Sequence record: NC_050154.1
Strand: one strand, 5' to 3'
Origin: Escherichia phage D6
Length of the DNA: 64,000 bases
Shown piece by piece: positions 1 through 64,000 of this stretch (position 1 is its first letter; the number at the start of each line of letters is the position of its first letter). The notes under the pieces are model-generated. The model saw only the letters and a list, made by a program, of their open reading frames with translations, had not been told where the DNA came from and made no database searches. Both the position numbers and the translations under genes were made by a program.

Positions 1-98
1 CAATTATTTAAAGTTATAAAATGCCGATTTTTTTTAATCCATCATAGATTGATGATGACCAGTAACACGTTGCCTTCATGGTCTTTAATTAGCGAAGT

Positions 99-127
99 GT
101 GGTTTCTACGGTTGGTTTTCTAAAATT
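99..127 (+). promoter_or_regulatory. Tandem operator-like motifs (tggtttctacgg, ggttttctaaaatt) about 100 bp upstream of the 227..1264 gene
   Basis: Shares the core TTTTCTAAC seen at 4630, 9075, 10323, 11366, 21267 and 54208; position matches the autoregulatory operators upstream of P1 c1. Confidence 0.4.
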
Positions 128-197
128 GATGACAAAAAATCACAGTTCGATCCTTTACTCACTCTGTTATTCGACATAAATTTGTCATAGTAATTTT

Positions 198-210
198 ATG
201 TTAGAAAACT
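198..210 (-). promoter_or_regulatory. Inverted copy of the operator-like motif (plus strand atgttagaaaact) 17 bp before the ATG at 227
   Basis: Reverse complement agttttctaacat matches the dispersed core; sits over the expected promoter/RBS region. Confidence 0.4.
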
Positions 211-226
211 AAATCGAGTAGGAATA

Positions 227-1264
227 ATGAGTAAGAAGTCGATCGAGAAAGAGTACAAACGGTTCCTGCAAACCGCTGAACGGTGGAAAGAGCTGGTGGT
301 CGCAAACTCTGTTTTCCATGATACCAGTTATGCTGGCGAGGAATTCCGCCATGTTGCATTAACGCATGACCAAAACATATTAGAAGAAGCTGAAAAATGT
401 CTTGCTGAATGGAAAGCCTTCGTTGACATGTGCCGCGATGCCGACGGCAAAGCGTCGAACATTGTTGAGTCTGTATATTCTCCGATCCCATTCATCATTG
501 AGGACACCAATCAAAGCACGCATGTCGTTGTGCAAAGCGCTACAACAACACGTACATTTACACGTGAACAATTGCTAAAAAAATACGACAAAATCATAAA
601 GAAAAGCCTGAAAAATAGGGTTTTTTCTCAAATCGTAGGTGCTCTTGAAGAAGAACAGCGCTTCTTTGAAGCTGAGCCTGAAGGCGAGATCTACCGGGCG
701 CGTAAAGAGGCATATACAGATGTTGTGCTGACAACAAACATCGAAGGCAGCAATGCCCTTTCTCGCTTTAGAGTTGGCGCACATGGCGCATTGGTTTTCG
801 CAAGACTACCGAAGACAACGATCCCCGTTGTCAATAATGTTGGTGAACGCCGGAGCATTACAATTTATTCTGGCGTCGAATCGGTACCTTGCAGCCTTCT
901 CGGCGATTTTAACTTATATCGTGTTCGTGACCTGGAAAAACACCAGCCAAGCTACGTTGCGAAGTCGTACATCTTAAGGAACATCGATATTCGCAATGAA
1001 AGCCTTAAGCAGAAATCCGCTAAGATGCTGGAGGATGCCGATCCGGCTATTCGCCATATCATTGAGCGTAAGATACGTACATCACGTGAAGCAATGGCAA
1101 GGCTGGATAAAATGGATCTGGAATTGTTAGACGTAATGATGGCCTCTGGAGACGACCTGACCGGCATTAAACTGAATGAAGCTCGTAAAAAATACGGCAA
1201 AGCAATCGAAGAACGTTACGGATACACATTCCCCCAAACGCAGTACGCCGCGAAGCTCTGGTAA
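227..1264 (+). CDS. Hypothetical 345-aa protein; candidate immunity repressor (c1-position analogue), function unproven
   Basis: ATG start; convergent with pacB as c1 is in P1; two operator-like motifs immediately upstream; no domain recognisable by eye. Confidence 0.4.
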   Translation: MSKKSIEKEYKRFLQTAERWKELVVANSVFHDTSYAGEEFRHVALTHDQNILEEAEKCLAEWKAFVDMCRDADGKASNIVESVYSPIPFIIEDTNQSTHVVVQSATTTRTFTREQLLKKYDKIIKKSLKNRVFSQIVGALEEEQRFFEAEPEGEIYRARKEAYTDVVLTTNIEGSNALSRFRVGAHGALVFARLPKTTIPVVNNVGERRSITIYSGVESVPCSLLGDFNLYRVRDLEKHQPSYVAKSYILRNIDIRNESLKQKSAKMLEDADPAIRHIIERKIRTSREAMARLDKMDLELLDVMMASGDDLTGIKLNEARKKYGKAIEERYGYTFPQTQYAAKLW

Positions 1265-1271
1265 TCACAAC

Positions 1272-1291
1272 CGGCCCCGCATCGCGGGGCT
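1272..1291. terminator. Bidirectional hairpin terminator between the convergent 227..1264 gene and pacB
   Basis: ccccgc-atc-gcgggg stem-loop followed by T-rich tract. Confidence 0.5.
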
Positions 1292-2800
1292 TTATATATC
1301 CAGATCCGGCATTTCGATATCCGCCAGAACCTGATCTCGGAAAGTTGCCATTTCGGCACCAATATCTTCATTAGCAGGCACATAGTCCACCAGCATAGTG
1401 AAGCAGTAGGTATCCCATCGGTCAGGCGATTTGATGTTTAGCTTTTGCCGCATGTGCTCTTTGCGCATCATCGCCATTTTCCCTTCTTCATTCAGTAAAA
1501 AGGGGATTTTTGACGCTTGCTCTGCCGTTTTAGGGTCACTGTCTATCCGCATACGCCCTGACTTTATGGCATCACGCGCCATAATATTTGCGTAGGCACG
1601 CTGATTAACAAATCGCTCCCTGTCTTTGTTCGCAAACATGGGTTTTCCCCACCGAATACGTACCGGGTTCGCACCACGACGCACCAACTGCGCACACGTA
1701 TCAGAACCAAAACCATCAGCATCAACCGCGATTGTTATATTCGGGTATTTTTCCGGCGTACATTCGTTATATATGAAGTCAGCAAAGGCCAATGGGTCCA
1801 TAGTGCCAGACATCTCCATTACCTTAAAGTTAACAACGCGCCGCTTATCCCTGTGACCTGATACCTTGCAGATGTTGAGGACCGACTTATCTCGCCCATT
1901 ACCAACGTCAGCCGTTGCCACCCATCCCCAGTTTTTCTCCAACAACACCTTGCGGCGAGCAGCGCGATCGCATTCATCACGACCAAGCAAATAGCCGTTA
2001 ATTTCTCGTGGGAACTGACCAAGCACCTTGACCATGTACTCAATAGAATCGCGCCCGCCATATTCCAGAAGCTTCTGCTTGATGAATTGTGGTGTGACGA
2101 ACGGTGATTCTTCCGAGTTAAGAACAATTGCTGTCCAGATCCCTTTCGGGTTGTCTGGGGTTTTTGCTTGAGAATGGTGCGAATCGTAGAAATAACCACT
2201 TGGCCTTGTTGGCTGGGATAGCATCAACATCCGGTTATCTTCTTCAGTAAGAGCACCGGTCATTACGCCGATCGCCTTATCAGATATACCAGATGCTTCA
2301 TCCAGAATTAGAAGCAAATGTGCCGCGTGTTCCCCCGCCAGCGCTTCTTCGTTGCCGAGTCGATAACCTTTGCAGAGAACTTCCCAAATCCCCTTACGGG
2401 AGCGCTCATAAAACATGGTGTCAGAGAGGACAAAATAGGTCTGCAACCACCCATGACGCTTAACTGCATTCGCCCAATACTGTTTAACGTATTTGAATAC
2501 GCCTGTTTTTACCTGGCCTATCTTGTTAGCAACAATGATGACACGGGCATCGGGGAACAGGATCATGAAAATCAACAGCAACATCGCGGTAAGGGACGAC
2601 TTCCCCGTTCCGTGTCCGGACGTGACGGTCGTCCTACTCCCCGTTTCCTGCACGGACTGAATGATCTGCTGCTGCTGGTGGGAGGGGAACATCCCAAAAA
2701 TATCGACAACAGCTTGGGTAAAGTTGTAGCGGTATTTGATTACCATATCGCGCCAGCGTGGATCGCTGGTGACGCATTTAATCTTGCGCCCTCCAGCCAT
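1292..2800 (-). CDS. pacB: Terminase large subunit (PacB-like)
   Basis: 502 aa; Walker A GHGTGKS; start ATG overlaps the upstream gene stop (TAATG); P1 PacB-like size. Confidence 0.85.
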   Translation of the reverse strand: MAGGRKIKCVTSDPRWRDMVIKYRYNFTQAVVDIFGMFPSHQQQQIIQSVQETGSRTTVTSGHGTGKSSLTAMLLLIFMILFPDARVIIVANKIGQVKTGVFKYVKQYWANAVKRHGWLQTYFVLSDTMFYERSRKGIWEVLCKGYRLGNEEALAGEHAAHLLLILDEASGISDKAIGVMTGALTEEDNRMLMLSQPTRPSGYFYDSHHSQAKTPDNPKGIWTAIVLNSEESPFVTPQFIKQKLLEYGGRDSIEYMVKVLGQFPREINGYLLGRDECDRAARRKVLLEKNWGWVATADVGNGRDKSVLNICKVSGHRDKRRVVNFKVMEMSGTMDPLAFADFIYNECTPEKYPNITIAVDADGFGSDTCAQLVRRGANPVRIRWGKPMFANKDRERFVNQRAYANIMARDAIKSGRMRIDSDPKTAEQASKIPFLLNEEGKMAMMRKEHMRQKLNIKSPDRWDTYCFTMLVDYVPANEDIGAEMATFRDQVLADIEMPDLDI

Positions 2801-4164
2801 TAATCATCCTCCGGCGGTTCTATCGCGATATCATCATCTCCGGCGTCATACCCTGCATCAGATGCATCATAATCACCGTAAATATCAGCCGTTGCCGAAG
2901 GGTCAATATCCAGCTCTTCGTCGTTGGCCTCGAATTCTCCAGCTTTACGCTCGCCATTGCGGTCGTAATCTCCGCACCCCAATTCTTCAACAATGGTTGC
3001 CACATCCGCCCGGCGCTCTGCCAGCCATTGCGGATGGTTAGCCTGAAGCGTCGCAAACTCCCTCGCCTCTTTGTCCAGCTGTTCATCATCAACATCATTG
3101 ACGTCAGAAACAGGTGGTTCGAGAAGAGTGATAGCTTTCGCCGCGCGCGCCGCGAGGATAGCCGGGACGCTGACCCCCTGGCGCTCGATGTATTCAGCAA
3201 CACCGATATCATCCAGTTCCTCGCGCTCACGCATACGTATAGCGGCGGCGATAACTCTGGCAGCGCGTGCGTCAGCGCCAATGCGATATTCAATCTCTTT
3301 GCCACGCTGTTCGGCCTGTAGGCGTGCTAATTCGAGTTTTTCTCTGGCCTCAGCCTCTTTGAATGCTTGCTGGCGAGCGCTCTGACGAAGCTTTTCATCC
3401 CCCTGTCGCAGCTTTTGTTCGGACTGATATATAGCTGCCAACCTACTGATAAAATCATTCATGTAGTAGGCCGCGTCACTGATTAGACCGAGAAGGCGCT
3501 GCCCAGGGTGCATTCCTTCTGGCTCTTTATCGCCCAAGGCGTCTATTTCCGCCTGTAGACGTTCGGCCTCCTGATCAACAATGCTTTGATACTGAAGTGC
3601 GCGCTCTTGCGCCATTTGAATTGCTAACCGCAGGTGTTCTTCTGCGCCGTTCTTCATCATATCGCGAGCCACATTCGTAGTGGGCAATGTGGCACGCTGC
3701 ACAGCACCGCCAGGGATCATTGCTGAAGATCCCTCAATTTTTGGGGCGCTTTTATCTTCTTCGGGGATCATTTTCGCCATTTTTTCGCGCAATGATCTCC
3801 TGACAGATTCTTTTATCTCATTGTTATTATTGGTATTACTTTCATGATCCGAAGTTTTCTTTCTTGGCATACTTCGGAAAGAACCTGCACCCTGCGAATT
3901 GTCAATTTCTGTAAATTTTGTTTTTTCTGCACCCTCTTCCAGCTTTTTTGTTGCTCTTCCCGCCCGTTTTTTTTCAGGTGATTTGGTGCTTTTTTTTGTT
4001 GTCTTTACCTGCGACCGCACCTCATTTTTTTTCATATTGAGATGCTTTCTGGCTGTATTGAAGCTAAGGCCATGCTCCTCACAGTATTCCTTTACAGTGA
4101 TCCCTTTTTCTTCACGCAACGCTATAAAGCGGGCGCGGTGCTCCTCCCAATTAACCAGACTCAT
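2800..4164 (-). CDS. pacA: Terminase small / pac-recognition subunit (PacA-like)
   Basis: 454 aa; N-terminal HTH-like segment (KEYCEEHGLSFNTARKHL); acidic C-terminus; translationally coupled to pacB. Confidence 0.55.
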   Translation of the reverse strand: MSLVNWEEHRARFIALREEKGITVKEYCEEHGLSFNTARKHLNMKKNEVRSQVKTTKKSTKSPEKKRAGRATKKLEEGAEKTKFTEIDNSQGAGSFRSMPRKKTSDHESNTNNNNEIKESVRRSLREKMAKMIPEEDKSAPKIEGSSAMIPGGAVQRATLPTTNVARDMMKNGAEEHLRLAIQMAQERALQYQSIVDQEAERLQAEIDALGDKEPEGMHPGQRLLGLISDAAYYMNDFISRLAAIYQSEQKLRQGDEKLRQSARQQAFKEAEAREKLELARLQAEQRGKEIEYRIGADARAARVIAAAIRMREREELDDIGVAEYIERQGVSVPAILAARAAKAITLLEPPVSDVNDVDDEQLDKEAREFATLQANHPQWLAERRADVATIVEELGCGDYDRNGERKAGEFEANDEELDIDPSATADIYGDYDASDAGYDAGDDDIAIEPPEDD

Positions 4165-4553
4165 AAAGCAACACCACGCTTTTTAACGGCGGCATTCCAC
4201 AGCTTATTCGCCATGTCCACCAGCTCTCGTTGCTCTTTTCGCGCCTGTTCGACTGATTTCCTGCTACAGTTTTTAACCAGTAAGCTACCGTATTCAGGCG
4301 TGCGCCCGCGCACCTTGAACTGATATCCGTTCAGACCATGTAGCCAGTATTTTCGTGGATACACACGATCATCCAGCTCACAGATTGCCCTGCTTGAACG
4401 AACAAAATGACGAATGATGTTAGTTACACTTACTCGTGAAACATGGAGATGAGGGTATTTTTCTTTGGCGAGAGTGGTAATTTCAGTGACTGTCAGATAG
4501 CAGTCAGCCCTGATCATGATATCCGCAATTTCTGCGCTGCTGATTTGTTCCAT
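4161..4553 (-). CDS. Hypothetical protein in the late-promoter-activator position (Lpa-like?)
   Basis: 130 aa; overlaps pacA start (ATGA); operator-like motif 77 bp upstream, as for C1-controlled lpa in P1. Confidence 0.3.
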   Translation of the reverse strand: MEQISSAEIADIMIRADCYLTVTEITTLAKEKYPHLHVSRVSVTNIIRHFVRSSRAICELDDRVYPRKYWLHGLNGYQFKVRGRTPEYGSLLVKNCSRKSVEQARKEQRELVDMANKLWNAAVKKRGVAL

Positions 4554-4629
4554 TAATCCCCCGGGCAGGAAATGACCGAGGGGATGATAATGAGAATGTT
4601 AAAACTGTATAGACTGGTAAAAAGATGAT

Positions 4630-4643
4630 TGTATTAGAAAATT
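4630..4643 (-). promoter_or_regulatory. Operator-like motif (plus strand tgtattagaaaatt) upstream of the 4161..4553 gene
   Basis: Read in the gene's direction it is aattttctaataca; ~30-bp block closely resembles the reverse complement of the site at 54208. Confidence 0.45.
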
Positions 4644-4661
4644 AATATTAAATACCTAATG

Positions 4662-5054
4662 CTACCAGCGAGACAAACGAACAACATGTTTCACTTTTGC
4701 GATCCACTTTCCGCGATAACTATTGATTACGGCCTGTGCCAGCTTCAAATTGGCTTCAAAATCAGCCTTACTACCATCAGACTCCACCAGCATTCCTCCA
4801 TCTATTTCTGGTAAACATAGATAATCCTGCTCAACCTGCAGCGGCATTGATGGCTCTCTGAATGGCGTTACTTGCTCTGCTTTCCAGCGAAATCTAACCC
4901 TCATCCCCCTGGTGGTCATTACTAGATAGCCTGTTATAGTGCTTTTATGGCCCACATCAGTACGCGTGGCATTGCATGACACGATCTTACAGTTAGCGAT
5001 AGACCACTCCATATTGGTGGCCTGTTGAGTGCTTAATTTGGTAGTCCCGTACAT
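4662..5054 (-). CDS. Hypothetical protein
   Basis: 130-aa ORF; overlaps the upstream gene by start/stop coupling. Confidence 0.35.
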   Translation of the reverse strand: MYGTTKLSTQQATNMEWSIANCKIVSCNATRTDVGHKSTITGYLVMTTRGMRVRFRWKAEQVTPFREPSMPLQVEQDYLCLPEIDGGMLVESDGSKADFEANLKLAQAVINSYRGKWIAKVKHVVRLSRW

Positions 5055-5629: not shown

Positions 5630-6083
5630 AACGTCTCCTTTTTTACACGCGCGACTATCCCCCGGAAGTGCCGGTAGTGATGTCGTAACTTCGTATTAAT
5701 TAAGGGGTACAGCCTGAGCGGCTATATGATGAATTGAAAGGAGTTGTGGCGGTGGTGCCTCCACCTGCCAGGTTAGCCACTCCTGGCGACGTCACTTATC
5801 AGAACGTAGTGAATGAAAATGGCTTCGTCACGAGCGCATAGCCGCAATTACCACAACGGAAACGGCGCTCACGCTAATTAAACGCCTTTTCCTGTTGTGC
5901 GCCGTGCTCTTCCGGCTGTCACACCGAATCGCCAGGATGGTGAATCCTCGGTCCGACGATATGAACGGGGCTTGCACATTCCGGCTACCTGGTTTGTTGC
6001 CTGAGCTAGGGGAAAAGGTAACCCCTTTAACGTCACCAGACCGCTAACGACGCATGTGCCAGACGCCGTGTTACAACCAAATA

Positions 6084-6159
6084 TGGTGGCCCCTACCTGA
6101 CTTGAACCGGTGACCGTGCGATTATGAGTCGCCAGCTCTAACCACTGAGCTAAGGGGCC
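6084..6159 (-). tRNA. tRNA with anticodon CAT (Met or lysidine-Ile2)
   Basis: Hand-folded cloverleaf: acceptor GGCCCCT/AGGGGCC, D-arm GCTC..GAGC, anticodon loop CTCATAA, T-loop TTCAAGT, encoded CCA; one mismatch each in anticodon and T stems. Confidence 0.55.
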
Positions 6160-6168
6160 AATTAGTTT

Positions 6169-6279
6169 TTATTTTCGACGCCTGAGATTCTTCGCTACTT
6201 GTTCTACTCCGTATACGATCACAAGCAGAAATAGCAAAGACCATCCAGGGTTCTTATCAATATACGTCCAAAAATCCAT
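6169..6279 (-). CDS. Small hydrophobic protein (36 aa; tciC-like position)
   Basis: Hand-translated micro-ORF below the ORF-track cutoff; ATG overlaps upstream stop (TGATG); one predicted TM helix. Confidence 0.3.
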   Translation of the reverse strand: MDFWTYIDKNPGWSLLFLLVIVYGVEQVAKNLRRRK

Positions 6280-6443
6280 CATGAGTTCCTGAACGCAGCT
6301 TTAATAATCGGCAATAGCAATACCACAGCTACTGAAACCAGTGCCCCATCAGCCAACACCGACATCACTTTGCTGGTGAAATCCACCAGCACGGACAAAA
6401 CGAGAAAACCAATGGCGCACGCAATACGCGCCTTGCCAATCAT
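6279..6443 (-). CDS. Small membrane protein (54 aa; tciB-like position)
   Basis: Hand-translated micro-ORF; ATG overlaps the TerB-like gene stop (TAATG); two hydrophobic segments. Confidence 0.3.
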   Translation of the reverse strand: MIGKARIACAIGFLVLSVLVDFTSKVMSVLADGALVSVAVVLLLPIIKAAFRNS

Positions 6444-6877
6444 TACAGATAATCTTCCACACGAAGGCCCAAACGACGGCCTACTTCTTCCAGTACTTTG
6501 TGTTCTGCTGGCTCGATTTCACCGTCCGCTTCTGCAATCGTCAGCATGTTAACGAATACTTCTTCCGCTTCTTTTGGATCATTTTTGATATCTTCAATTT
6601 CGCGAAGGATATTCATGCGACCAACACGGAAACCAGCTTCCAGTTGCTCAGTAAAACGGGTGATTGTTGCGGTAATTTCGTTGCCAAAATGACTTAAGCG
6701 AGGATTAGAGCGGACAAGCTGATCAAGTTTCGCTGTTTCTTCCTTTTCGATTTCACCATCTGCGGCAGACACCAACAAACAGCCACCGATAATGGCCTCC
6801 ATCAGATCGCGATTCTCAACCCTTTTCAGCTCTACTTTTGCTGAAGCGACTTTCTTACCGAAAAATTTACCGAACAT
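6443..6877 (-). CDS. TerB-family protein (TciA-like)
   Basis: 144 aa; duplicated acidic EADGEIE motifs typical of TerB; P1 carries TerB-like tciA next to its tRNA genes. Confidence 0.55.
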   Translation of the reverse strand: MFGKFFGKKVASAKVELKRVENRDLMEAIIGGCLLVSAADGEIEKEETAKLDQLVRSNPRLSHFGNEITATITRFTEQLEAGFRVGRMNILREIEDIKNDPKEAEEVFVNMLTIAEADGEIEPAEHKVLEEVGRRLGLRVEDYL

Positions 6878-7144
6878 TGGTTATCCCTCAATAAACATGA
6901 CGTATTTATTAGGTTGCGGTGCCTGGTGCCTCCAGGTGACGTTAACCAGTTAACAATTAACGCCGGGATTTTTGACTTAACCACTAAGGAGGATTGTTTT
7001 AACTGTTCCGCGTGCGCTTAGCCGCATTCACCGCAATGGTAAGAGCACTTGGCTGGCTGGGCGGCGATGACGCCTGTACGCATTTGGTGATCCGGTTCTG
7101 CTTCCGGCATTCGCTTAATTAGCCAAATACTCTTAACGTTGCGC

Positions 7145-7231
7145 TGGCGGAGAGTAATGGAATCGAACCATCATCGCTTGCGCAATGGGACGGTTTTCAA
7201 GACCGCTTGAGCACCATGCGCCCTACTCTCC
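7145..7231 (-). tRNA. Atypical type-II tRNA-like gene (anticodon TGA, Ser?) or pseudo-tRNA
   Basis: Perfect 7-bp acceptor GGAGAGT/ACTCTCC with encoded CCA; anticodon arm GCGGT-CTTGAAA-ACCGT; variable arm with GCAA tetraloop; T-arm GATGG-TTCGATT-CCATT; D-arm not canonical. Confidence 0.4.
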
Positions 7232-7378
7232 GGCCGTTGTGGTGGCCGGTACTGAATCTCCGGCATACGGTGCAGCCAATTAGGACTACGGACGATCACC
7301 GCTCGCGAAAGGGAAGATTTGCGGCCGCATTTCCCTAACATCCAAGAAAGCTATCGCATCAGCCTGCGAATCCACCAC

Positions 7379-7466
7379 AACGTTGAGAACACTGGTTGTC
7401 ACGCTGCAACGCAACATTTATTCGTAGATTGGGATATGACCCCGTTACGCCAGTGTTCTCAACGTT
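7379..7466. repeat. Long-stem hairpin H1 (17-bp perfect inverted repeat, 54-nt loop)
   Basis: aacgttgagaacactgg ... ccagtgttctcaacgtt. Confidence 0.7.
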
Positions 7467-7608
7467 GTAGTGCCGGTTACGGTTCCGGCCAGGCCTCTTC
7501 CTCAACGGGGTGTTCTCCGTACGGACTACCGTTTATTGGTCGTTCCTGCGGTTTATGTTGTGAAGCCAGATGCTTATCTTCTGGTTGCTTCAAAGAGCTG
7601 CACTTCAT

Positions 7609-7695
7609 CACAACGGTAAGGGTACTTCGTAGGGATTCGAACCCTCTGCCAAGCTCGGCGATCTCCGACGTCGCAAAATACCCTTACCTGTTGTG
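7609..7695. repeat. Long-stem hairpin H2 (16-bp stem with one bulge) enclosing a T-arm-like GGTTCGAATCC element
   Basis: cacaacggtaagggta ... tacccttacctgttgtg; internal agggattcgaaccct; directly adjacent to tRNA-Thr; does not fold as a complete tRNA. Confidence 0.6.
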
Positions 7696-7696
7696 C

Positions 7697-7772
7697 TGGT
7701 GCCGATTAACGGACTCGAACCGCTGACATCCTGCTTACAAGGCAGGCGCTCTACCAACTGAGCTAAACCGGC
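7697..7772 (-). tRNA. tRNA-Thr (anticodon TGT)
   Basis: Clean cloverleaf folded by hand: acceptor GCCGGTT/AATCGGC, anticodon stem CCTGC/GCAGG, loop CTTGTAA, T-loop TTCGAGT, encoded CCA. Confidence 0.9.
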
Positions 7773-7774
7773 AT

Positions 7775-7850
7775 TGGCGATGGTGGATGGATTTGAACCA
7801 TCGACCCGTTGATTAACAGTCAACCGCTCTAACCGCTGAGCTACACCATC
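7775..7850 (-). tRNA. tRNA-Asn (anticodon GTT)
   Basis: Clean cloverleaf: acceptor GATGGTG/CACCATC, anticodon stem GTTGA/TCAAC, loop CTGTTAA, T-loop TTCAAAT, encoded CCA. Confidence 0.9.
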
Positions 7851-8353
7851 ACTTGCCGGGTACGTCTCCGGCGAGGGCTTCCACCTCCGTATGCTTTTCG
7901 GCGCACCGCGCCCTGGCTGCAATTCGGTAACAGGGGATGCACAACCCTGGCTTCCAGCGTGATTAGCGCCTTCAGCATGACGGGATATACCCGTTACAAG
8001 AAATTCCCCCAGGATGCCATTAAGCAATGGCTGTTACGCGGGAGGGACGTAACAGGTAAGGGCGCTGACCAGAAAGACCTGACCCTTCTCATTCATCTGG
8101 TTAATCACACCAGCGCCCTTGCCTGTTATGCCTCCCCGTTCCCTAATACACAGACGGGGACACTCTGCGGTCGATTTTTTGACGGGGGACGACTCATACC
8201 CCGTGGCGTCTGGCTTCTTAGGCCGCTACCATCATCAGATCATCGTTTGCATTTACTTTAATGGTCGGTTTCTAAACCGCCGCAAAGTCGCTAACCATGA
8301 CGAAAACCCTAAAAAAGCCCACCCGAAGATGGGCAAATACGCTACATCTCACA

Positions 8354-55727: not shown

Positions 55728-55782
55728 TTTCGGTGTTAAACATGTACCAAATTACATCCTTTTGTGTGCCTAAGTGGTGTTG

Positions 55783-56589
55783 CTATGGTTCCTTTTTGGT
55801 GTTCTTTTGGAGCGCATCGATAACGCCTTGTGGCATGATTAAACTGATTGCCGGACTCATTACTGCATCATCCAGTAGAGAACCAGTTAACGTGATGGCG
55901 ACAGCGTTCTCTAAACCTTTGGTTGCCTGAGTGGTTGACGTTTTAATGCGACCTGTAAGGGCTACGACACTCTCACTTGCTGAGTTAATTTCGGAGAGTA
56001 AAGCTTCGGCGGCTGTCACTGCTTCCCGTAAAGCATCAATTTCATCCTGAGTAATGACTGGAGCCTGAGCGCCCCCAGCACCACCCTGTCCACCATTGCT
56101 ATCACCACCACCAGCACTTCCGGCAGCTTCAATTTTTGCGTTAATGGCGTTCATGGCGGTTTTCAGAGCATCAAGTTTTAGCGCCGTCAATGCGTCCGTT
56201 AGAGATTGCGGAATGGAAACATTCCCCATTCCCTCAACAAGGGCGAAAGCAGGTATGGGGGTCAGCTCGTTACCTTTTGCGTAGCATTCCCAGCCAATCT
56301 TCATCTGTAACAGCTCTGATGGCTTGGTGTATGGGGAAAGAGAATCAGCCAGTAATGAAGACGCTTTGCTGGCCTCATTGAGCTGTTCAGAAAAGCCAAG
56401 CAATTGAGTAGTCCAGGCCGAAACAGAATCAGGATAGGTTTTATCGGCGTGAACTATTCCCTGTATGGCGCTGGCGAGCGATGAGGCTTTTACAGAAGCT
56501 GCTCGGCTTATGGTTATAGATTCTGGTGTAGAGATACCGGCATCTGACAGAATTTTGAAGGCTTTAACTTCACCTATTGAATCAAGCAT
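55783..56589 (-). CDS. Hypothetical Ala/Gly-rich protein
   Basis: 268 aa from ATG at 56589 (overlaps PAAR stop, TAATG); the track's longer ORF uses an upstream alternative start. Confidence 0.35.
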   Translation of the reverse strand: MLDSIGEVKAFKILSDAGISTPESITISRAASVKASSLASAIQGIVHADKTYPDSVSAWTTQLLGFSEQLNEASKASSLLADSLSPYTKPSELLQMKIGWECYAKGNELTPIPAFALVEGMGNVSIPQSLTDALTALKLDALKTAMNAINAKIEAAGSAGGGDSNGGQGGAGGAQAPVITQDEIDALREAVTAAEALLSEINSASESVVALTGRIKTSTTQATKGLENAVAITLTGSLLDDAVMSPAISLIMPQGVIDALQKNTKKEP

Positions 56590-56873
56590 TATGCAACCTG
56601 AAAAATATCCTCGCCGTTGGCGATAACAGAACCACAAGAAAGCAGATCGCCTACACAGACAACTCCCTTTCCACCTATCGAAAACCATGCTCGCGTCGAT
56701 ACAGCTGCCCCTGGATGTGCACTGTTACCGTCAGTGTGACTGGGAAACATGGCACCATCTACAACAACTGGCTTACCGTTAACGGTGAACCAGGGAACGG
56801 TTTCAGCTACCAGTCGCGGCGGAAATCCTCCGTGACCAGAACAAAGGGTGTCGCTGGTGGCTATTGCGCTCAT
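56589..56873 (-). CDS. PAAR-domain spike-tip protein
   Basis: 94 aa; CSGHGGFPP and VCVGDLLSCGS pattern typical of PAAR; strong RBS AGGAGG. Confidence 0.7.
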   Translation of the reverse strand: MSAIATSDTLCSGHGGFPPRLVAETVPWFTVNGKPVVVDGAMFPSHTDGNSAHPGAAVSTRAWFSIGGKGVVCVGDLLSCGSVIANGEDIFQVA

Positions 56874-56957
56874 TCTTCACCTCCTGGTTATCCTTCTATT
56901 GTCATCACTTTGTTATTTCGTCATTCAAACGGAGAGTTAAATTTCGGAATATTTTTG

Positions 56958-57116
56958 TATTCTCAATTCGCTCTCAAATTTATCTCACTATCAGACCATC
57001 ATTCGGTGGGTGATTAAGATATTCTCAAAATAAACTCAACAAGCGCCCTTTTTTATCTCGTTTGGTGTGGATTTTTGGGGGCTTCTCTTTTAAAATTACA
57101 TTTTGATTCTCAAATG
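56958..57116 (+). repeat. parC-like centromere region with repeated TTCTCAA(A) motifs
   Basis: tattctcaattcg, gctctcaaattt, atattctcaaaat, tgattctcaaatg upstream of parM. Confidence 0.4.
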
Positions 57117-57139
57117 TGTCTCAGAAGTGGAGCAAGAAG

Positions 57140-58096
57140 ATGCGCATTTTTATCGATGATGGTTCAACCAATATCAAAATGCTGTGGGAGCACGACGGGG
57201 AAACTCGCACTCACATCAGCCCTAACAGCTTTAAGCGCGGATGGTCAGCAACATTTGGTGCGGGCAAGCCGTTTAACTATGTCATTGACGACGAAAAGTA
57301 TTCATACGACTTGATATCGCCAGATGTTCTGCCGACGAATAATGTGGAATGGCAATACAGCCCGCTTAACGTCCTGGCTGTTCACCATGCCCTGCTGACA
57401 AGCGGTATTGAGCCGCAGGAAGTAGAAATTGTGGTCACGCTGCCTCTGGCAGAGTTTTACGACGACGACGCGCAATACAATCTCGATAACATCGAGCGCA
57501 AGAAAGCCAGTCTTATGCGCCCCGTCACGCTGAATAAAGGCAATGTATTCACTATTAAGAAAGTTACGGTACGCCCGGAGTCTATCCCGGCGGGAATTAG
57601 CCTGTGCGACAATCTGAACCCTGCCCACTCTGTTCTTATCGTCGATTTGGGTGGAACTACCCTTGATGTTTCAATGGTCGCTGGACAAATGACGGCAGTT
57701 TCCCGTGTTTTTGGCGATTCGAATCTTGGTGTATCACTGGTCACCAGGGAAGTAAGGCAAGCACTTGCAAGGGCCAATACCGAAACGTCAAATTACAATG
57801 TTGATCAGCTCATTATTAACCGCCACGATGAAGATTATCTGAACGACAATATCAATGACCCATCAGCGATTGGTGATGTGAAAAAGGCCATTGCCGCAAG
57901 CATTGACCGTCTGCGTACCCGCGTTCTTGATGTGATTGGCGACTTTAAAGGATATACGCATGTCATGGTGATCGGTGGTGGCGCACCGCTGGTGGCAGAT
58001 GCAATTCGCGAGCAAGTTAATATTCGTGATGACCGTTTCTTCGTGGCGGATGACCCGCAACTTGCTCTTGTTCATGGCCTGAAAGCAATCGGTTAA
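57140..58096 (+). CDS. parM: Actin-like plasmid segregation ATPase ParM (StbA)
   Basis: MRIFIDDGSTNIK ... ISPNSFKRGW ... VAVHHALLTSG closely parallels plasmid R1 ParM; ATG at 57140 with GGAG RBS. Confidence 0.85.
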   Translation: MRIFIDDGSTNIKMLWEHDGETRTHISPNSFKRGWSATFGAGKPFNYVIDDEKYSYDLISPDVLPTNNVEWQYSPLNVLAVHHALLTSGIEPQEVEIVVTLPLAEFYDDDAQYNLDNIERKKASLMRPVTLNKGNVFTIKKVTVRPESIPAGISLCDNLNPAHSVLIVDLGGTTLDVSMVAGQMTAVSRVFGDSNLGVSLVTREVRQALARANTETSNYNVDQLIINRHDEDYLNDNINDPSAIGDVKKAIAASIDRLRTRVLDVIGDFKGYTHVMVIGGGAPLVADAIREQVNIRDDRFFVADDPQLALVHGLKAIG

Positions 58097-58102
58097 CGAG
58101 GT

Positions 58103-58447
58103 ATGTCCATGTCTCAGGAACGTAAGAAAGTGATGATTTATCTTCGCCCAGAGGCTTATGCCAATGAAAAGGCGGCGAGCGAGAAGATAAAAAAACATAG
58201 CGATATGGCAAGAACTGCATTGTTGGCAGGGCTTGCGCTGGGAGAAGTCGATAGCAGGCTTCCAGGATTACTGGCTTCCCTGCTGACCGAAGACAATAAC
58301 CCGGAGCTGATCCGAAAAATGCTGGCATCCTTCTTGGAACTACCAGCTGCGGTTGAGGAGCGCCCTGCCTCCATTGAGCCAGTGAAGGAGCAATTTGTTG
58401 CCAAAAGCGCGTCGGCGCGCAATCTGGCTGACTCTCTACCTGATTGA
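58103..58447 (+). CDS. parR: ParR (StbB) centromere-binding adaptor
   Basis: 114 aa; RTALLAGLAL matches R1 ParR RAALTAGLAL; directly downstream of parM. Confidence 0.7.
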   Translation: MSMSQERKKVMIYLRPEAYANEKAASEKIKKHSDMARTALLAGLALGEVDSRLPGLLASLLTEDNNPELIRKMLASFLELPAAVEERPASIEPVKEQFVAKSASARNLADSLPD

Positions 58448-58465
58448 CAGAAGATGTGCTGGTTT

Positions 58466-58490
58466 AAGGCTGCAAATTGCAGCCTTTTTT
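58466..58490 (+). terminator. Rho-independent terminator after parR
   Basis: aaggctgca-aat-tgcagcctt followed by TTTT. Confidence 0.65.
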
Positions 58491-58500
58491 ATGCCTTAAT

Positions 58501-58570
58501 GGTGTCTAATTAGTGTTAATCTGGCACCAGTTAGGTGCTGTTATGGTGCAATTTTGTATCTGGTTCCAAT
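58501..58570. repeat. GGTGC/GGTTC-type repeats at ~11-bp phasing upstream of parA (putative centromere/operator)
   Basis: ggtgtc, ggcacc, ggtgct, ggtgca, ggttcc spaced about one helical turn apart. Confidence 0.4.
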
Positions 58571-58734
58571 TTGGGGCTGCTTTCGTGTTAAATAGGATGC
58601 AATATAAGGTGTATTTGGTCTGATTGATGTTATACTTTGCCAAACATTCATGACTCCATTATAGAGCCTGTCCCGCATCAAAAAGGCTCTTATCTGGAAC
58701 CGTTTTGATACCAAAATCACACCGAGGAACGGAT

Positions 58735-59376
58735 ATGATTATATTGGTAGTCAGCCAAAAAGGTGGCTGTGGAAAATCAACCACAAGCGTAAACATCTGT
58801 GCGGAGCTTGCCCGCGAAAATAAGGATGTAGTGTTACTAGATGCAGACAAGCAAGGAACAGCTGCCCGCTGGGCAGCTGACCGTAACACGGCAGAGGTTT
58901 CTCCTGTAATTCATTGTGTCCAGAAGTTTGGTAATATTCGAGAAACACTTCTCGATCTGGATAAGCGTTATGAATTTGTAGTTGTTGATACAGCCGGGCG
59001 CGATAGCAAAGAGATGCGTACAGGCATAACCGCTGCAGATATTGTGTTGGTCCCATTCAGACCATCTCAACCAGATTTAGACACGCTGGCACACTTTGTT
59101 GAAGTGTTTGAAGAGGCTTTGGACCTGATGCCTAATCCTAGCATCAAGGCGTTCGCAGTCTTAACAATGGCCCCATCCAATCCGGTTGTGAATGAAACCA
59201 ATGAGGCCAAAGAGTACCTGGCTGAATATCCGCAACTGAAGTTGCTGAAAACCATCATTCGTGATCGTAAGGTTTACCGCGATTGCATGGCTGAAGGGAA
59301 GGGCGTTGTTGAGATGGACAACGGGAAAGCTAAAGGTGAAATCCAGATGTTGGTTAAGGAGTTATTAAGTGATTAA
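58735..59376 (+). CDS. Small ParA-family partition ATPase (type Ib)
   Basis: Walker A KGGCGKST; 213 aa from ATG at 58735 with GAGGAA RBS. Confidence 0.75.
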   Translation: MIILVVSQKGGCGKSTTSVNICAELARENKDVVLLDADKQGTAARWAADRNTAEVSPVIHCVQKFGNIRETLLDLDKRYEFVVVDTAGRDSKEMRTGITAADIVLVPFRPSQPDLDTLAHFVEVFEEALDLMPNPSIKAFAVLTMAPSNPVVNETNEAKEYLAEYPQLKLLKTIIRDRKVYRDCMAEGKGVVEMDNGKAKGEIQMLVKELLSD

Positions 59377-59656
59377 GCCTCGTAAATCGGTAAAAGCCCC
59401 CGAAGTAAAAGACCCTGATCTTGAACGCCGAATTGAGGATTTTGCCAGTAAGGCTGATTTGGTGCCGGGTGAGCAACCAGAAGACAACAAAGTGCTCGAT
59501 AAGGACGCTCCACGTGATTTTAAATCTATTCGTGTTGGTTTCAATGAATACGAGTACCAAGTACTTGATGCGTTAAGTAAAAAGCATAATCGCAGCAAAT
59601 TGAATATGATCCGCCATGCTATCCTCATGTTAGCGGAGTCTGAGGAAGCAAAATAA
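59369..59656 (+). CDS. ParG-like centromere-binding protein (ribbon-helix-helix C-terminus)
   Basis: 95 aa; GTG start with AAGGAG RBS overlapping the parA stop; C-terminal IRVGFNEYEYQVLDALSKKHNRSKLNMIRHAI is RHH-like. Confidence 0.5.
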   Translation: MIKPRKSVKAPEVKDPDLERRIEDFASKADLVPGEQPEDNKVLDKDAPRDFKSIRVGFNEYEYQVLDALSKKHNRSKLNMIRHAILMLAESEEAK

Positions 59657-59690
59657 AGTCTTTCAGGTTGGTTTTAGAACTTAAAAAGTC

Positions 59691-59760
59691 TTGAACCAAA
59701 GGTGCACCAATACACCACTAATTTGGTGCACCTTTACATCCTTTTTGGTTCCAATTGTGT
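59691..59760. repeat. Second block of GGTGCACC / TTGGTTCC repeats downstream of parG
   Basis: Palindromic GGTGCACC twice (25-bp spacing) plus ttggttccaa; includes a terminator-like hairpin. Confidence 0.4.
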
Positions 59761-59924
59761 ACCATTTGTCATTAATTTACTTATGCGCAAAAGTGGGCTT
59801 CATGAAAAAGCTCATTATTGAAATAACGATAGAAAGCAATTTCTAATCAACTAGTGGTTGTCAGCCTATTCGGCTTATAAGATCATACGCTGTTATACGT
59901 TGTTTACGCTTTGAGGAATCCACA

Positions 59925-61586
59925 ATGAGTGAGGCAGAAGCCCGCCCGACTAACTTTATTCGTCAGATCATCGATGAAGATCTGGCCAGTGGTAAGCACA
60001 CCACAGTACATACCCGTTTCCCGCCGGAACCGAATGGCTATCTGCATATTGGTCATGCGAAATCTATCTGCCTGAACTTCGGGATCGCCCAGGACTATAA
60101 AGGCCAGTGCAACCTGCGTTTCGACGACACTAACCCGGTAAAAGAAGATATCGAGTACGTCGAGTCGATTAAAAACGACGTTGAATGGTTAGGTTTTCAC
60201 TGGTCTGGCAACATCCGTTACTCCTCCGATTATTTTGACAAACTCCATGCCTATGCTGTTGAACTGATCAACAAAGGCCTGGCGTATGTTGACGAACTGA
60301 CGCCGGAACAGATCCGCGAATACCGCGGCACCCTGACGCAGCCGGGTAAAAATAGCCCGTACCGCGATCGCAGCGTTGAAGAGAACCTGGCGCTGTTCGA
60401 AAAAATGCGTGCCGGTGGTTTTGAAGAAGGTAAAGCCTGCCTGCGTGCGAAAATCGATATGGCTTCGCCGTTTATCGTGATGCGCGACCCGGTGCTGTAC
60501 CGCATTAAGTTTGCTGAACACCACCAGACTGGCAACAAGTGGTGCATCTACCCGATGTACGACTTCACCCACTGCATCAGCGATGCGCTGGAAGGTATTA
60601 CGCACTCTCTGTGTACGCTTGAGTTCCAGGACAACCGTCGTCTGTATGACTGGGTACTGGACAACATCACCATTCCTGTTCACCCGCGCCAGTACGAATT
60701 CTCGCGCCTGAATCTGGAATACACTGTGATGTCCAAGCGTAAGCTGAACCTGCTGGTGACCGACAAGCACGTTGAAGGCTGGGATGACCCGCGTATGCCG
60801 ACCATTTCCGGTCTGCGTCGTCGTGGTTACACTGCTGCTTCTATTCGTGAGTTCTGCAAACGCATCGGCGTGACCAAGCAGGACAACACCATTGAGATGG
60901 CGTCGTTGGAATCCTGCATCCGTGAAGATCTCAACGAAAATGCGCCGCGCGCAATGGCGGTTATCGATCCGGTGAAACTGGTTATCGAAAACTATCAGGG
61001 CGAAGGCGAAATGGTCACCATGCCGAACCATCCGAACAAACCGGAAATGGGGAGCCGTCAGGTGCCGTTTAGCGGTGAGATTTGGATTGATCGCGCCGAT
61101 TTCCGCGAAGAAGCTAACAAGCAGTACAAACGTCTGGTGCTGGGTAAAGAAGTGCGTCTGCGTAATGCTTATGTGATTAAGGCAGAACGCGTCGAGAAAG
61201 ATGCCGAAGGTAATATCACCACCATCTTCTGTACTTATGACGCCGATACCTTAAGCAAAGATCCGGCAGATGGTCGTAAAGTCAAAGGTGTTATTCACTG
61301 GGTGAGCGCGGCACATGCGCAGCCGGTTGAAATCCGTTTGTATGACCGTCTGTTCAGCGTGCCGAACCCAGGTGCTGCGGATGATTTCCTGTCGGTGATT
61401 AACCCGGAATCGCTGGTGATCAAACAGGGCTTTGCTGAACCGTCGCTGAAAGATGCGGTTGCGGGTAAAGCATTCCAGTTTGAGCGTGAAGGTTACTTCT
61501 GCCTCGACAGCCGCCATTCTACGGCGGAAAAACCGGTATTTAACCGCACCGTTGGGCTGCGTGATACCTGGGCGAAGTTAGGTTAA
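59925..61586 (+). CDS. glnS: Glutaminyl-tRNA synthetase
   Basis: 553 aa; HIGH motif (HIGH at residues ~40-43), VMSKR motif; near-identical along its length to E. coli GlnS as I recall it. Confidence 0.95.
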
Positions 61587-61611
61587 TAGGTATTTCGCCA
61601 CATAAAAAAGT

Positions 61612-61636
61612 AAACGCCGCTACTGCGGCGTTTTTT
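61612..61636. terminator. Bidirectional rho-independent terminator between glnS and dam
   Basis: aacgccgc-tact-gcggcg followed by TTTTTT; A-run upstream. Confidence 0.7.
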
Positions 61637-62540
61637 ACTTCATTATTGCAATTATATCGTTAGCAACTACACGTGTTGACGCCTTGCAGGACACCGACCG
61701 TCTGGCTGCCATATGATGTACTTTAAACCCGTTTCCTTCATATAGTTCACGGATGTTTGGCGCACCACTATTTGTTATCACTACCTTAGCGCCGCGCTGG
61801 TGGGCTTCCACCAATAGAGATACCAGCCGTTTCTGTTCGTCGAAACGGAAGCTATTTCCTGAATAACTGGTAAACCCTTCTGTATCCGGCAGCGGTTCAT
61901 ACGGCGGATCGCAAAAAATCACATCGCCTTCACCAGCCGCCTCGATGACGCCAGCAAAGTCACCTGATACAAAGGACGTGTTTTTGAGTACGTCATCAGC
62001 CAAAAATGCCTCCATCTCTGCATGTGGGAAGTAGGGCGCTTTGTATTTGCCATACCCCACGTTGAACTCGCCATTTTGGTTGTACCGCGTTACGCCATTA
62101 AAACAGTGCCGATTAAGGTACAAAAAGGCGGCAGCATGATGTAGCTGGTCATACTTTCCTCTGTTAAATGCCTCACGCACTTCGAGGTAAGCGTCAGCGT
62201 TGTTGTAATTTTGGAAAAAACTATATGACAGCGTGACGAGCGAATGTCCTTCTCGCTGCAATGTCTGATAGAAGTTAATCAGGTCACCGTTAATATCATT
62301 AAGCAGGTTGTGGCGAAATCCTGCATTCGTAAATACGGAACCGCCACCAACGAATGGTTCTATTAACCGCTTACCGTGTGGTAGATGCTCAAGCACTGTA
62401 GGCAATTCTGAGAATTTACCACCTACCCATTTGAATATCGGACGCTCATATTCATCCGGAGTCCGAATGGTGCGCATATAGCTAATTTCAGCCATCGTAT
62501 CCTGTTTTTCTATGGCTATGCTTGCTATAGATTTACTCAT
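61635..62540 (-). CDS. dam: Dam-family N6-adenine DNA methyltransferase
   Basis: KWVGGK, FLYLNR, EFNV and DPPY motifs aligned to E. coli Dam; ATG at 62540 overlaps the upstream gene stop (ATGAGTAA). Confidence 0.8.
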   Translation of the reverse strand: MSKSIASIAIEKQDTMAEISYMRTIRTPDEYERPIFKWVGGKFSELPTVLEHLPHGKRLIEPFVGGGSVFTNAGFRHNLLNDINGDLINFYQTLQREGHSLVTLSYSFFQNYNNADAYLEVREAFNRGKYDQLHHAAAFLYLNRHCFNGVTRYNQNGEFNVGYGKYKAPYFPHAEMEAFLADDVLKNTSFVSGDFAGVIEAAGEGDVIFCDPPYEPLPDTEGFTSYSGNSFRFDEQKRLVSLLVEAHQRGAKVVITNSGAPNIRELYEGNGFKVHHMAARRSVSCKASTRVVANDIIAIMK

Positions 62541-63213
62541 AGAGCACCCCCTTATTCGCTTCGAAAACTGCCTTTGCGAATCCATGTGGAGTAGCACTTC
62601 GAAAATTAGCCCTGTCAGGCCCTGGTGGCGCGGCATGGATTCTGTTATCTGGCTTGCCTAATGATTCGTCCATTAGGGCATCAGGCATGACAAAGCCCTG
62701 GCCGCTCCAGAGGCATGTTTTTTTGGTGTAGTTATCTTCCTGACAATATGCAGTGAAGAAGTAAGGGTGAAAGATGTGATCTGGCTTACGCCAGAATGTC
62801 GATATTTTGCTGACCGGATTTTCAATCATGTACGGACAACCGATCATCTTTGCAATGTCATAACACTGCCAGACAACCTGCATTGCTTTGAACTGGAAAA
62901 CCGGATCTTTATTAGCCTTGTCCGAAAACCAGCGCGCGCCGGAAACAGCCAGGTCAGTACACGGTGGGAACCCGGCCAGAAACACGATGCGCTGCAAATT
63001 CTTACGGAGAAAAGCGTATACTTCATCGCTATCGATGATCGCACTAATACGCGTCAGAACGGCACCTGATTGCATCCGCTCGTCACTGGTCGATAAGTGC
63101 TGTGGATCGACGATAGCGGCATCGACACCGTATTCCAGCCAGGGGGCAACCATTGCCCCCGTAAAATCACAAAGACTCACAACAAGCGGTCGGTTATTAT
63201 CGTTCTGCTTCAC
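62533..63213 (-). CDS. Compact C5-cytosine-methyltransferase-like protein (start uncertain)
   Basis: [12 protein letters not shown] (PC motif IV-like) and YMIENP (ENV motif VI-like); candidate GTG start at 63213 with GGAGG RBS; too short for a full C5-MTase with target-recognition domain. Confidence 0.4.
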
Positions 63214-64000
63214 CGCCAATGGCCTCCACCAGCGCGTTAAACAGTGCAGATAATTCGCCCGTAAAGAGCACGAAATCAGCATCAAATCGTTGTGCTACAT
63301 CCTCCCGGTCGATATCGTCGTTCTGGTCATAGAGATCATCACAGAATGTCAGGGCTTTGATACTCATATCATCGTTGACTCTGAACGACGCGCGGTCCAT
63401 CCAGTTAATTGCAACGGTCGTAGCTACTTTCCCCGCCTCAATGTGAGACATAATCTCGTCGGACTGTAGATCAACTTTGTTGCAGCGAACGGCACCACCA
63501 TTATCGAGCAGACCCTTTAATGTGGCGTCTTCACCTGCTGTAAATCCGGCAGGGAAGCCGTTTTTAAACCACTCGGTCATTGTAATTTCCAGCGGTTCGC
63601 GTGGTGTGAATGGAATGACAGGCAGGCTGCCGAGCGATTTTCGCAATAAAGCCAGCTGGTCCTCTGCCTTTTTGGCGCTGCTTGCCTCAACGAATACCAG
63701 ATGGTTTCTGCGGTCGATCAGGATTTTGGCGAGTGATTTTCTCGTGAAAGCACGAGGAAGAAGAGAGTGAAGCACTTCATCCTTCAGCGAATCTTTTTCG
63801 GTCTTCTTCAGCTTTCTGTCTTGCTCTTCTTCAAGTGTCAGGATTTTTTTCTGTAACTCTTCTTTGAGCACTTGAGAAGGTAGGATTTTTTCCTCTCGTT
63901 TATGCTGTATCAGAAGAAAACCCTGGTATTCATGGGTGAGGTTGTCACCAAGAACGGAGGTCCAACCAGCTTTAGCCATATCCTGAGAACCGCATGGGGT
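63197..64000 (-). CDS. rdgC: RdgC-like recombination-associated protein (5' end beyond window)
   Basis: EEKILPS ... [21 protein letters not shown] ... [20 protein letters not shown] matches E. coli RdgC over its C-terminal ~260 aa; P1 carries a homologue (hrdC) next to dmt. Confidence 0.85.

Follow-up and report, generated by a model that had tools for sequence, protein, structure and literature searches.

Phages P1 and D6 represent two described subgroups of P1-like phage-plasmids, P1 belonging to P1-g1 and D6 being the type of the D6-like subgroup, P1-g2 (Pfeifer et al. 2021, PMC7969092). Partition and replication genes are co-localised in P1-g1 and lie 14 persistent genes apart in P1-g2, and collinear blocks in inverted orientation have been reported for the P1 group (PMC7969092). 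D6-like genomes are recognised by repB with iterons, repL, ParM, glnS, tRNAs for Asn, Thr, Ser and Met, and tciAB, further hallmarks being a C4/icd/antirepressor region and a tail-fibre inversion region that is their most P1-similar part (PMC6799933). Plasmid pYU39_89 is about 99% identical to D6, and the difference in the tail-fibre C segment between D6 and plasmids of this type, to which pYU07-18_89 also belongs, is already published (PMC6799933). The subject here is a stretch of 64,000 nucleotides from Escherichia phage D6 (NC_050154.1; MF356679), called the window throughout, and the way in which its gene order departs from the P1 map.

D6 is very likely the known sister lineage of P1 (P1-g2), with a layout that differs from P1 for four separable reasons, on a structural backbone whose gene order and strand are those of P1. 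A single ~20-kb inversion, running from pmgL through mat with lpa, pacAB, c1 and cre inside, would have occurred in the P1-type lineage, and D6 would have retained the order 26, mat, ref, dre, c1, pacB, pacA, lpa, followed by pmgS, pmgM and ulx. The D6 lineage would itself have inverted the darB-ddrB interval that carries prt and pro. The hrdC-dmt cassette, located between upfC and gene 5, is flipped in D6 and the Leclercia plasmid pE1_003 relative to P1 and Cronobacter phage JK004. Finally, self-contained accessory modules would occupy lineage-specific sites or be non-orthologous replacements, among them a 2.4-kb tRNA/tci cassette, immI (C4-icd-antirepressor) with repL, toxin-antitoxin pairs, the plasmid replicon, which is Rep3 in D6, and the partition system, with ParMR in D6 against ParAB in P1. 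Each late operon seems to carry its own candidate late promoter, including the operons just downstream of inserted modules, so that a module insertion or inversion need not silence the genes downstream.

The D6 lineage and the separation of its replication and partition genes are already published, and the rearranged layout is real and already known. Reportedly, Gilcrease and Casjens sequenced the D6 genome in 2018 and compared it in detail with P1. Possibly new are the polarity of the P1 inversion and a D6-type late-promoter box, and nothing else.

Identity of the window

Bases 1-4924 are identical (100%) to positions 4924-1 of AY753669, the D6 immC region, in which dut, dre, rox, c1, pacB, pacA and lpa are annotated and rox lies at 4909-4940. 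Since base 1 of the window is the rox centre, D6 numbering is analogous to P1 numbering from lox. The genes c1, pacB, pacA and lpa come after rox as in AY753669, which places the window in the Dre/rox system; dre itself is just beyond the window, and its counterpart, a Cre homolog, occupies 172-1128 of pYU07-18_89. The entire window is collinear with this Salmonella plasmid (NZ_CP035549) at 99.1-99.4% identity, except for the C segment (~32.2-36.4 kb, tail-fibre genes), the only stretch unmatched there. By these matches the window corresponds to phage D6 coordinates 1-64000, counted from the middle of its Dre/rox site.

The D6-like hallmarks that were looked for are all present: glnS, the four tRNAs, tciAB, a Rep3 replicon with iterons, ParM, the C4/icd/antirepressor region and a P1-like C segment. 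The last lies within by far the longest DNA match to P1, window 31582-37078 against P1 31658-37145 at 90.5% nucleotide identity. The published separation of replication from partition is seen as well, the genes tub through upfC standing between Rep3 (45.56-46.89 kb) and the ParM/ParR-like genes (57.1-58.4 kb). Membership in the wider P1 supergroup follows from homologs of virion, lysis, regulatory (C1/Lpa/C4) and packaging (PacAB) functions, 43 P1 proteins in total.

The layout is widespread. At least 80% of window 1-25000 is matched in a single piece by 89 plasmids, and 79 plasmids match 40000-64000; they are complete, independently assembled and come from Escherichia, Salmonella and Shigella. 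Among the phage genomes searched there was no complete D6-like genome, only P1-type relatives, JK004 and the remote Xanthomonas phage Rb1 (capsid identity 22%).

Departure from the P1 map

A sequence-only reading of the window had compared it with a P1 map in which tRNA and tci genes lie next to dmt/hrdC and repA lies with the partition genes. That picture of P1 is right. In NC_005856 the order is uhr-hrdC-dmt, tRNA-Asn, tRNA-Thr, plp, upl, tciABC, tRNA-Ile, ban, dbn, with dmt at 66412-68676 and tRNA-Asn at 69348, and repA (61771-62631) adjoins parA/parB (58999-61213). In the window, the terminase/tRNA/tci block (1.3-8.3 kb) and the dmt/hrdC block (61.6-64 kb) do stand at opposing ends as claimed, separated by head genes (prt, pro, 23), tail genes (S, R, 16, bplA, sit, tub, 21, 22), immI, repL, the Rep3 replicon and the ParM/ParR-like genes. 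Their placement at opposite ends is partly a result of cutting a circular genome at rox; measured on circular pYU07-18_89, the distance between the two blocks is still ~53 kb in one direction and ~33 kb in the other.

The same reading had found ban, humD and phd/doc missing between the tci genes and the terminase. This holds, the gap between lpa and the tRNA/tci cassette being ~1.5 kb of small open reading frames (ORFs), and tblastn (E<1e-3) detected no homolog of ban, humD, phd or doc anywhere in the 64-kb window. The absence needs refining: humD and phd/doc are not lost, as they lie just past the window on the far side of dre, and ban has no homolog in the D6-like plasmid.

The dot plot against P1, drawn at DNA and protein level, shows that the window is not collinear with P1. 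Stretches at 11.8-19.1 and 26.3-56.9 kb run in the P1 direction, and those at 0.2-11.4, 20.7-25.2 and 61.6-64 kb run opposite to it. DNA-level alignment to P1 covers just 12.4 kb of the window and includes matches in both orientations. Homologs of 43 P1 proteins are encoded in the window, with similarity far above chance (pacB E=2e-180, hrdC 2e-91, dmt 3e-129). Of these, 28 are co-oriented and keep P1 order and strand, from ulx to darB (11.8-19.1 kb) and from ddrB through upfC (26.3-56.9 kb). The other 15 are inverted: c1, pacB, pacA, lpa, tciA, tciB, plp, pmgS, pmgM, icd, repL, pro, prt, dmt and hrdC. The features that carry this comparison are listed below; c1 to lpa, the two early genes pmgS and pmgM, and pro and prt are inverted relative to P1.

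1-16, right half of rox, the crossover site of the Dre recombinase (base 1 = AY753669 position 4924 = rox centre)
227-1264 (+), c1 repressor homolog (immC), annotated in AY753669; 21% identical to P1 C1, E=3e-6
1292-2800 (-), pacB (terminase); 56% to P1, E=2e-180
2800-4164 (-), pacA (terminase), annotated in AY753669; 21-22% to P1, E=1e-11
4161-4553 (-), lpa, late-gene activator; 31% to P1, E=3e-13
9085-10308 (-), pmgS-like early gene; 21% to P1, E=8e-11
10918-11412 (-), pmgM, early gene for a VRR-NUC protein; 57% to P1, E=1e-44
11812-12246 (-), ulx; P1 order and strand
12283-19119 (-), darB; 44% over 2000 amino acids, E=0; P1 order and strand
19215-25241 (-), darB-ddrB interval, CHAP lysin through prt, the proposed D6-specific inversion
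19271-19756 (+), CHAP lysin, in the darB-ddrB interval
22494-23492, pro (head)
23506-25188, prt (head)
26333-45452 (-), ddrB, ddrA, darA, hdf, lydB, lydA, cin (+), C segment, R, 16, bplA, pmgA, sit, pmgB; collinear with P1 26.2-45.4 kb
46978-56873 (-), tub, pmgC, bplB, pmgG, 21, 22, 23, mlp, upfB, upfC; collinear with P1 45.4-65.1 kb
61635-62636 (-), dmt homolog, Dam D12 methyltransferase, matching about residues 478-753 of the 754-residue P1 Dmt
63197 to beyond 64000 (-), hrdC (RdgC family), cut by the window end

The invertible C segment consists of S', U', U and S, with inverted repeats at 32138-32773 and 35786-36424. The tub-upfC stretch of D6 is free of two blocks present in P1, sim/immI/kilA/repL/rlf/pmgF and parB-parA-repA.

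Relative to the P1 map sensu stricto, signed orders give 16 breakpoints for 53 markers, and none of three adjacencies tested (dmt-tRNA-tci-ban; repA beside parAB; pmgL-pacB on the strand opposite genes 23 and 26) is kept. The sequence-only reading had taken the unusual order to suggest a distinct lineage or a modular reshuffle, and both descriptions are borne out. The first is matched by the identity of the window as D6, its place in P1-g2, backbone proteins only ~21-61% identical to those of P1, and a layout found in at least 79-89 plasmids. The second is matched by the 16 breakpoints between P1 and the D6-like plasmid.

Gene order in six genomes and probable direction of change

Signed gene orders were compared among P1, Cronobacter phage JK004 (MZ188976), the D6-like plasmid, Leclercia adecarboxylata pE1_003 (NZ_CP042508), Aeromonas pASP-135 and a Vibrio alginolyticus plasmid, with best-hit orthology and breakpoints counted on circular signed orders. 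JK004 core proteins are ~80% identical to P1 and ~45% to D6; for the major capsid protein, identity to D6 is 63% in Leclercia and ~32% in Aeromonas and Vibrio. Besides its P1-like phage-plasmid backbone, the Aeromonas hydrophila plasmid (NZ_CP016381) contains large insertions with resistance determinants (blaKPC-2, blaSHV-12, qnrB19, class 1 integrons and a mer operon). The pairwise comparisons gave the following counts.

P1 and JK004: 65 markers, 2 breakpoints (26/mat and pmgL/lxc)
D6-like plasmid and Leclercia: 41 markers, 2 breakpoints (ddrB/pro and prt/darB)
Aeromonas and Vibrio: 32 markers, 0 breakpoints
P1 and D6-like plasmid: 53 markers, 16 breakpoints
JK004 and D6-like plasmid: 42 markers, 7 breakpoints
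D6-like plasmid and Aeromonas: 35 markers, 3 breakpoints
P1 and Aeromonas: 36 markers, 3 breakpoints

The two breakpoints between P1 and JK004 amount to one inversion of ~20 kb with pmgL and mat at its ends. The order 26, mat, ref ... cre, c1, pacB, pacA, lpa ... pmgM, (pmgL), ulx is common to JK004, D6, Leclercia, Aeromonas and Vibrio for the genes detected in each genome (cre, c1 and pacA were detected in some only), and among the six genomes the pmgL-mat block is reversed in P1-type genomes only. The pmgS-like gene and pmgM adjoin ulx in D6, as they do in JK004 and Leclercia. Because the D6 orientation recurs in JK004, Leclercia, Aeromonas and Vibrio, parsimony suggests that the inversion of the terminase/c1/lpa block arose on the P1 side and not in D6. 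The D6 order of the pmgL-mat block is the commoner state in this comparison and probably the ancestral one. Of 573 matching plasmid records, 488 retain the 26/pmgL junction of the P1-type arrangement intact.

The two breakpoints between the D6-like plasmid and Leclercia likewise amount to one inversion, that of the darB-ddrB interval. The prt gene adjoins and diverges from darB in all five other genomes and is co-directional with it in D6, which points to an inversion specific to D6. The hrdC-dmt cassette occurs in four of the genomes, always with upfC on one side and gene 5 on the other; P1 and JK004 share one orientation and D6 and Leclercia the opposite one.

Mobile and replaced modules

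Window 5898-8337 corresponds to the whole P1 dmt-ban interval (P1 68855-71200) with sharp homology boundaries. It contains the following genes.

6084-6159 (-), tRNA-Met(CAT)
6279-6443 (-), tciB
6443-6877 (-), tciA
7145-7231 (-), tRNA-Ser, an extra tRNA that P1 does not have
7319-7726 (+), plp; 99% to P1
7697-7772 (-), tRNA-Thr
7775-7850 (-), tRNA-Asn

This cassette is 92.6% identical in nucleotides to P7, and neighbouring backbone proteins are 21-57% identical to those of P1. On this contrast of identities, the tRNA/tci cassette looks as if it was recently exchanged between lineages. JK004 has the order uhr-hrdC-dmt-ban, and no tRNA or tci genes were found in it; the Leclercia tRNA locus lies between lpa and pmgS, as in D6. 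Together these suggest that the tRNA-dmt adjacency arose by a cassette insertion specific to P1 and P7. Other modules also resemble P1 unusually closely: cin is 98% identical, U/U' 95-96% and plp 99%, as are, outside the window, humD, phd, doc and pdcA (95-100%). Such values point to recent lateral exchange.

The immI module also differs in place between lineages. In the window it is followed by repL, which is inverted relative to P1.

19986-20693 (-), Rha-type antirepressor
20693-20917 (-), icd
20964-21049, C4 RNA (Rfam, 69.6 bits, above the gathering score)
21118-21170, c4 a1b1 targets (above the Rfam gathering score)
21331-22293, repL

The C4 RNA lies between pmgC and bplB in P1, between darB and pro in D6, between dmt and upfC in Leclercia (15757-15844) and between tail genes 6 and 24 in JK004 (34695-34775), the last two coordinates being those within the extracted sequences. 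A 276-bp piece of the Rha-type antirepressor (20019-20294) is 86% identical to pYU07-18_89 74092-74367, outside the window, whose neighbours are an "ash family" gene and another icd-like gene. This locus is the second immI-like region of D6-like genomes mentioned in PMC6799933.

Most of the lineages compared differ in where the plasmid replicon sits, and their partition systems vary too. In D6 the replicon occupies the space between pmgB and tub.

45557-46892 (+), Rep3 plasmid replicon
45808-46596, Rep3-family initiator (Pfam Rep3_N 3.4e-29, Rep3_C 9.8e-16)

Five tandem copies of a ~19-20-nt iteron (GGTGTAAGATTTGCCCTCAA-like) with ~22-bp spacing lie upstream of the Rep3 gene, and more copies lie downstream in both orientations, giving at least nine in all. 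The D6 Rep3 initiator had no match to P1 RepA by tblastn. The iteron layout mirrors incC/incA around P1 repA, the two initiators being without similarity detectable by tblastn.

Candidate late promoters

When nine annotated P1 late promoters were made into a weight matrix, the matrix found every one of them again in P1. In the window it gave one weak match against ~2 expected, so D6 does not use the P1 box (AAGTGACTT-N4-TANNNT), which is absent there. A box found de novo, AAATMACA-N7-BANNNT, has nine exact matches in the window against 0.34 expected, a count reached in none of 100 shuffles. All nine are on the correct strand and shortly upstream of an operon.

19171-19191 (-), candidate late promoter upstream of darB
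19215-19235 (+), candidate late promoter upstream of the CHAP lysin gene
25221-25241 (-), candidate late promoter upstream of prt
27727-27747 (-), candidate late promoter upstream of ddrB
31511-31531 (-), candidate late promoter upstream of lydA
38115-38135 (-), candidate late promoter upstream of R
45491-45511 (-), candidate late promoter upstream of pmgB, directly downstream of the Rep3 replicon insertion
54124-54144 (-), candidate late promoter upstream of 23
56898-56918 (-), candidate late promoter upstream of upfC

The rest of pYU07-18_89 adds two boxes, one ahead of mat and the other ahead of gene 7, immediately following the higBA insertion. Leclercia pE1_003 has three exact boxes, upstream of bplB, lydA and ddrB, those at lydA and ddrB being found in D6 as well. 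The box is a candidate late promoter of the D6 lineage.

P1 has a single exact box of this type, at 31571-31591 (-), just upstream of lydC. Next to it is the cin/C-segment region, where D6 and P1 are ~90% identical. The match could be left over from an exchange between the lineages or be due to chance.

Alternative explanations

If P1 is taken as the reference state, the order of D6 could instead reflect a reshuffle within the D6 lineage starting from a P1-like ancestral arrangement. The 16 breakpoints over 53 markers agree with such a history, as does the prt-pro inversion, which is confined to D6, prt being divergent from darB in P1, JK004, Leclercia, Aeromonas and Vibrio. The pmgL-mat block, with the terminase inside, speaks differently: it has the D6 orientation in JK004 (~80% identical to P1), Leclercia, Aeromonas and Vibrio, and P1 and JK004 differ by exactly this inversion. 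For core markers, moreover, the D6-like plasmid and P1 are equidistant from the Aeromonas/Vibrio order, with three breakpoints each. A reshuffle on the D6 side holds for the prt-pro interval and some module positions only and is largely refuted for the terminase block; as a general account it is improbable. Programmed inversion, in which the block orientations would be phase states set by a recombinase in the manner of Cin and the C segment, is very improbable. D6 does encode Cin and, just outside the window, Dre, and its C segment, with inverted repeats of 198 and 366 nt, is truly invertible. Yet a search for long inverted repeats (at least 30 nt in 64 kb) at the block boundaries found the C-segment arms only, and the block orientations are identical in at least 79-89 plasmids, each a single collinear alignment; this candidate was rejected. 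It is scarcely credible that the order is an artefact of assembly or of the window, that is, a mis-join, a chimera or a circular cut point concealing a P1-collinear element. The window does begin exactly at rox, so that the apparent opposite ends come in part from linearising a circle, but the circular signed orders still give 16 breakpoints against P1. The artefact was likewise rejected: the same order appears in single alignments of 79-89 independently assembled complete plasmids, and the independent 2004 GenBank record (AY753669) matches bases 1-4924 at 100%.

Some points weigh against the account of a known sister lineage with four separable causes. Beyond base 4924, the identification as D6 depends on near-identical plasmids and published descriptions. 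The polarity of the events comes from parsimony over six genomes with best-hit orthology, and it does not extend to the ancestral position of hrdC/dmt and tRNA/tci, which are absent from both outgroups. The genes ppp, pmgTU, hot, humD, phd, doc and pdcA lie on the P1 strand in the D6-like plasmid, for which a single inversion is insufficient; the extra event would be a recent acquisition of the ppp-pdcA block, as its 80-100% protein identity suggests. The AAATMACA motif was counted in the very upstream regions that had served to derive it. That the textbook P1 map is itself the rearranged state, and that a late box of its own explains how D6 tolerated insertion and inversion, is possible but rather doubtful as a combined proposition.

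Further features of the window and the rest of the circle

A maintenance and cargo island takes the place of the P1 Pdmt region; its genes were recognised from Pfam, the pYU07-18_89 annotation and PMC6799933, which already reports glnS in all D6-like genomes.

57116-61586 (+), maintenance/cargo island
57116-58096 (+), ParM (Pfam)
58103-58447 (+), ParR-like stability protein
58705-59376 (+), ParA-like ATPase (Pfam)
59369-59656 (+), small ORF
59925-61586 (+), full-length glutaminyl-tRNA synthetase, glnS (Pfam tRNA-synt_1c, 6e-130)
62533-63285 (-), ORF of 250 amino acids overlapping the dmt homolog; no Pfam match and no P1 homolog

The dmt homolog consists of the Dam (D12) domain only. At the dmt position, Leclercia has two separate methyltransferase genes. 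As for the terminase, members of P1-g2 were said in the phage-plasmid survey to encode pacB homologs only (PMC7969092); the pacA homolog seen here probably differs from that statement through search sensitivity.

The remaining 25 kb of pYU07-18_89 begin with genes 5, 6, 24 and 7, followed by higBA and then 25 and 26. Next come mat, simB, pmgF, the second icd and ref, and then a block on the P1 strand comprising ppp, pdcB, pmgT/U, hot, humD, phd, doc and pdcA, before the circle closes with isaA, dut and dre. No homolog of ban, dbn, res, mod, lxc, lyz, ssb, kilA, ant, rlfAB, parAB or repA was detected anywhere in this plasmid by tblastn.

Comparison with known systems

For annotation, the window is best labelled phage D6 (P1-g2), with genes named by homology and not by position on the P1 map. 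It illustrates a mode of phage-plasmid evolution in which a stable virion backbone undergoes few whole-operon inversions while immunity, replication, partition, toxin-antitoxin and tRNA modules move freely between sites. If the polarity suggested by parsimony is true, the P1 reference itself includes a derived inversion and should be used with that caution; this polarity and the late box, if true and not already part of the 2018 description of the D6 genome, would be small new observations.

From D6 and D6-like plasmids such as pYU39_89 and pYU07-18_89, the window differs in nothing of substance, the C-segment tail-fibre genes setting it apart from the Salmonella plasmids only. With P1 (NC_005856) it shares C1, Lpa, PacAB, the C4 RNA, a Cin-invertible tail-fibre segment and the plasmid-prophage lifestyle. 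In contrast to P1, the pac-c1 block, prt-pro and hrdC-dmt are oppositely oriented. The tRNA/tci cassette lies between lpa and pmgS in D6 but between dmt and ban in P1, and immI with repL lies between darB and pro in D6 but between pmgC and bplB in P1. A separate Rep3 replicon and ParMR in D6 likewise contrast with the adjacent RepA and ParAB that follow gene 23 in P1.

The two nearer relatives each share part of the D6 arrangement. JK004 has the D6 orientation of 26, mat, ref, cre, c1, pacB, pacA and lpa, then pmgS, pmgM and ulx, yet it is a relative on the P1 side: RepA/ParAB follow gene 23, uhr-hrdC-dmt is oriented as in P1, and tRNAs are lacking. Leclercia pE1_003 is one inversion apart from D6 on 41 markers, resembling it in the orientation of the region from 26 to ulx and of hrdC-dmt and in having tRNAs between lpa and pmgS, whereas its prt-pro diverges from darB as in P1, its RepB follows gene 23 and its C4 is flanked by dmt and upfC.

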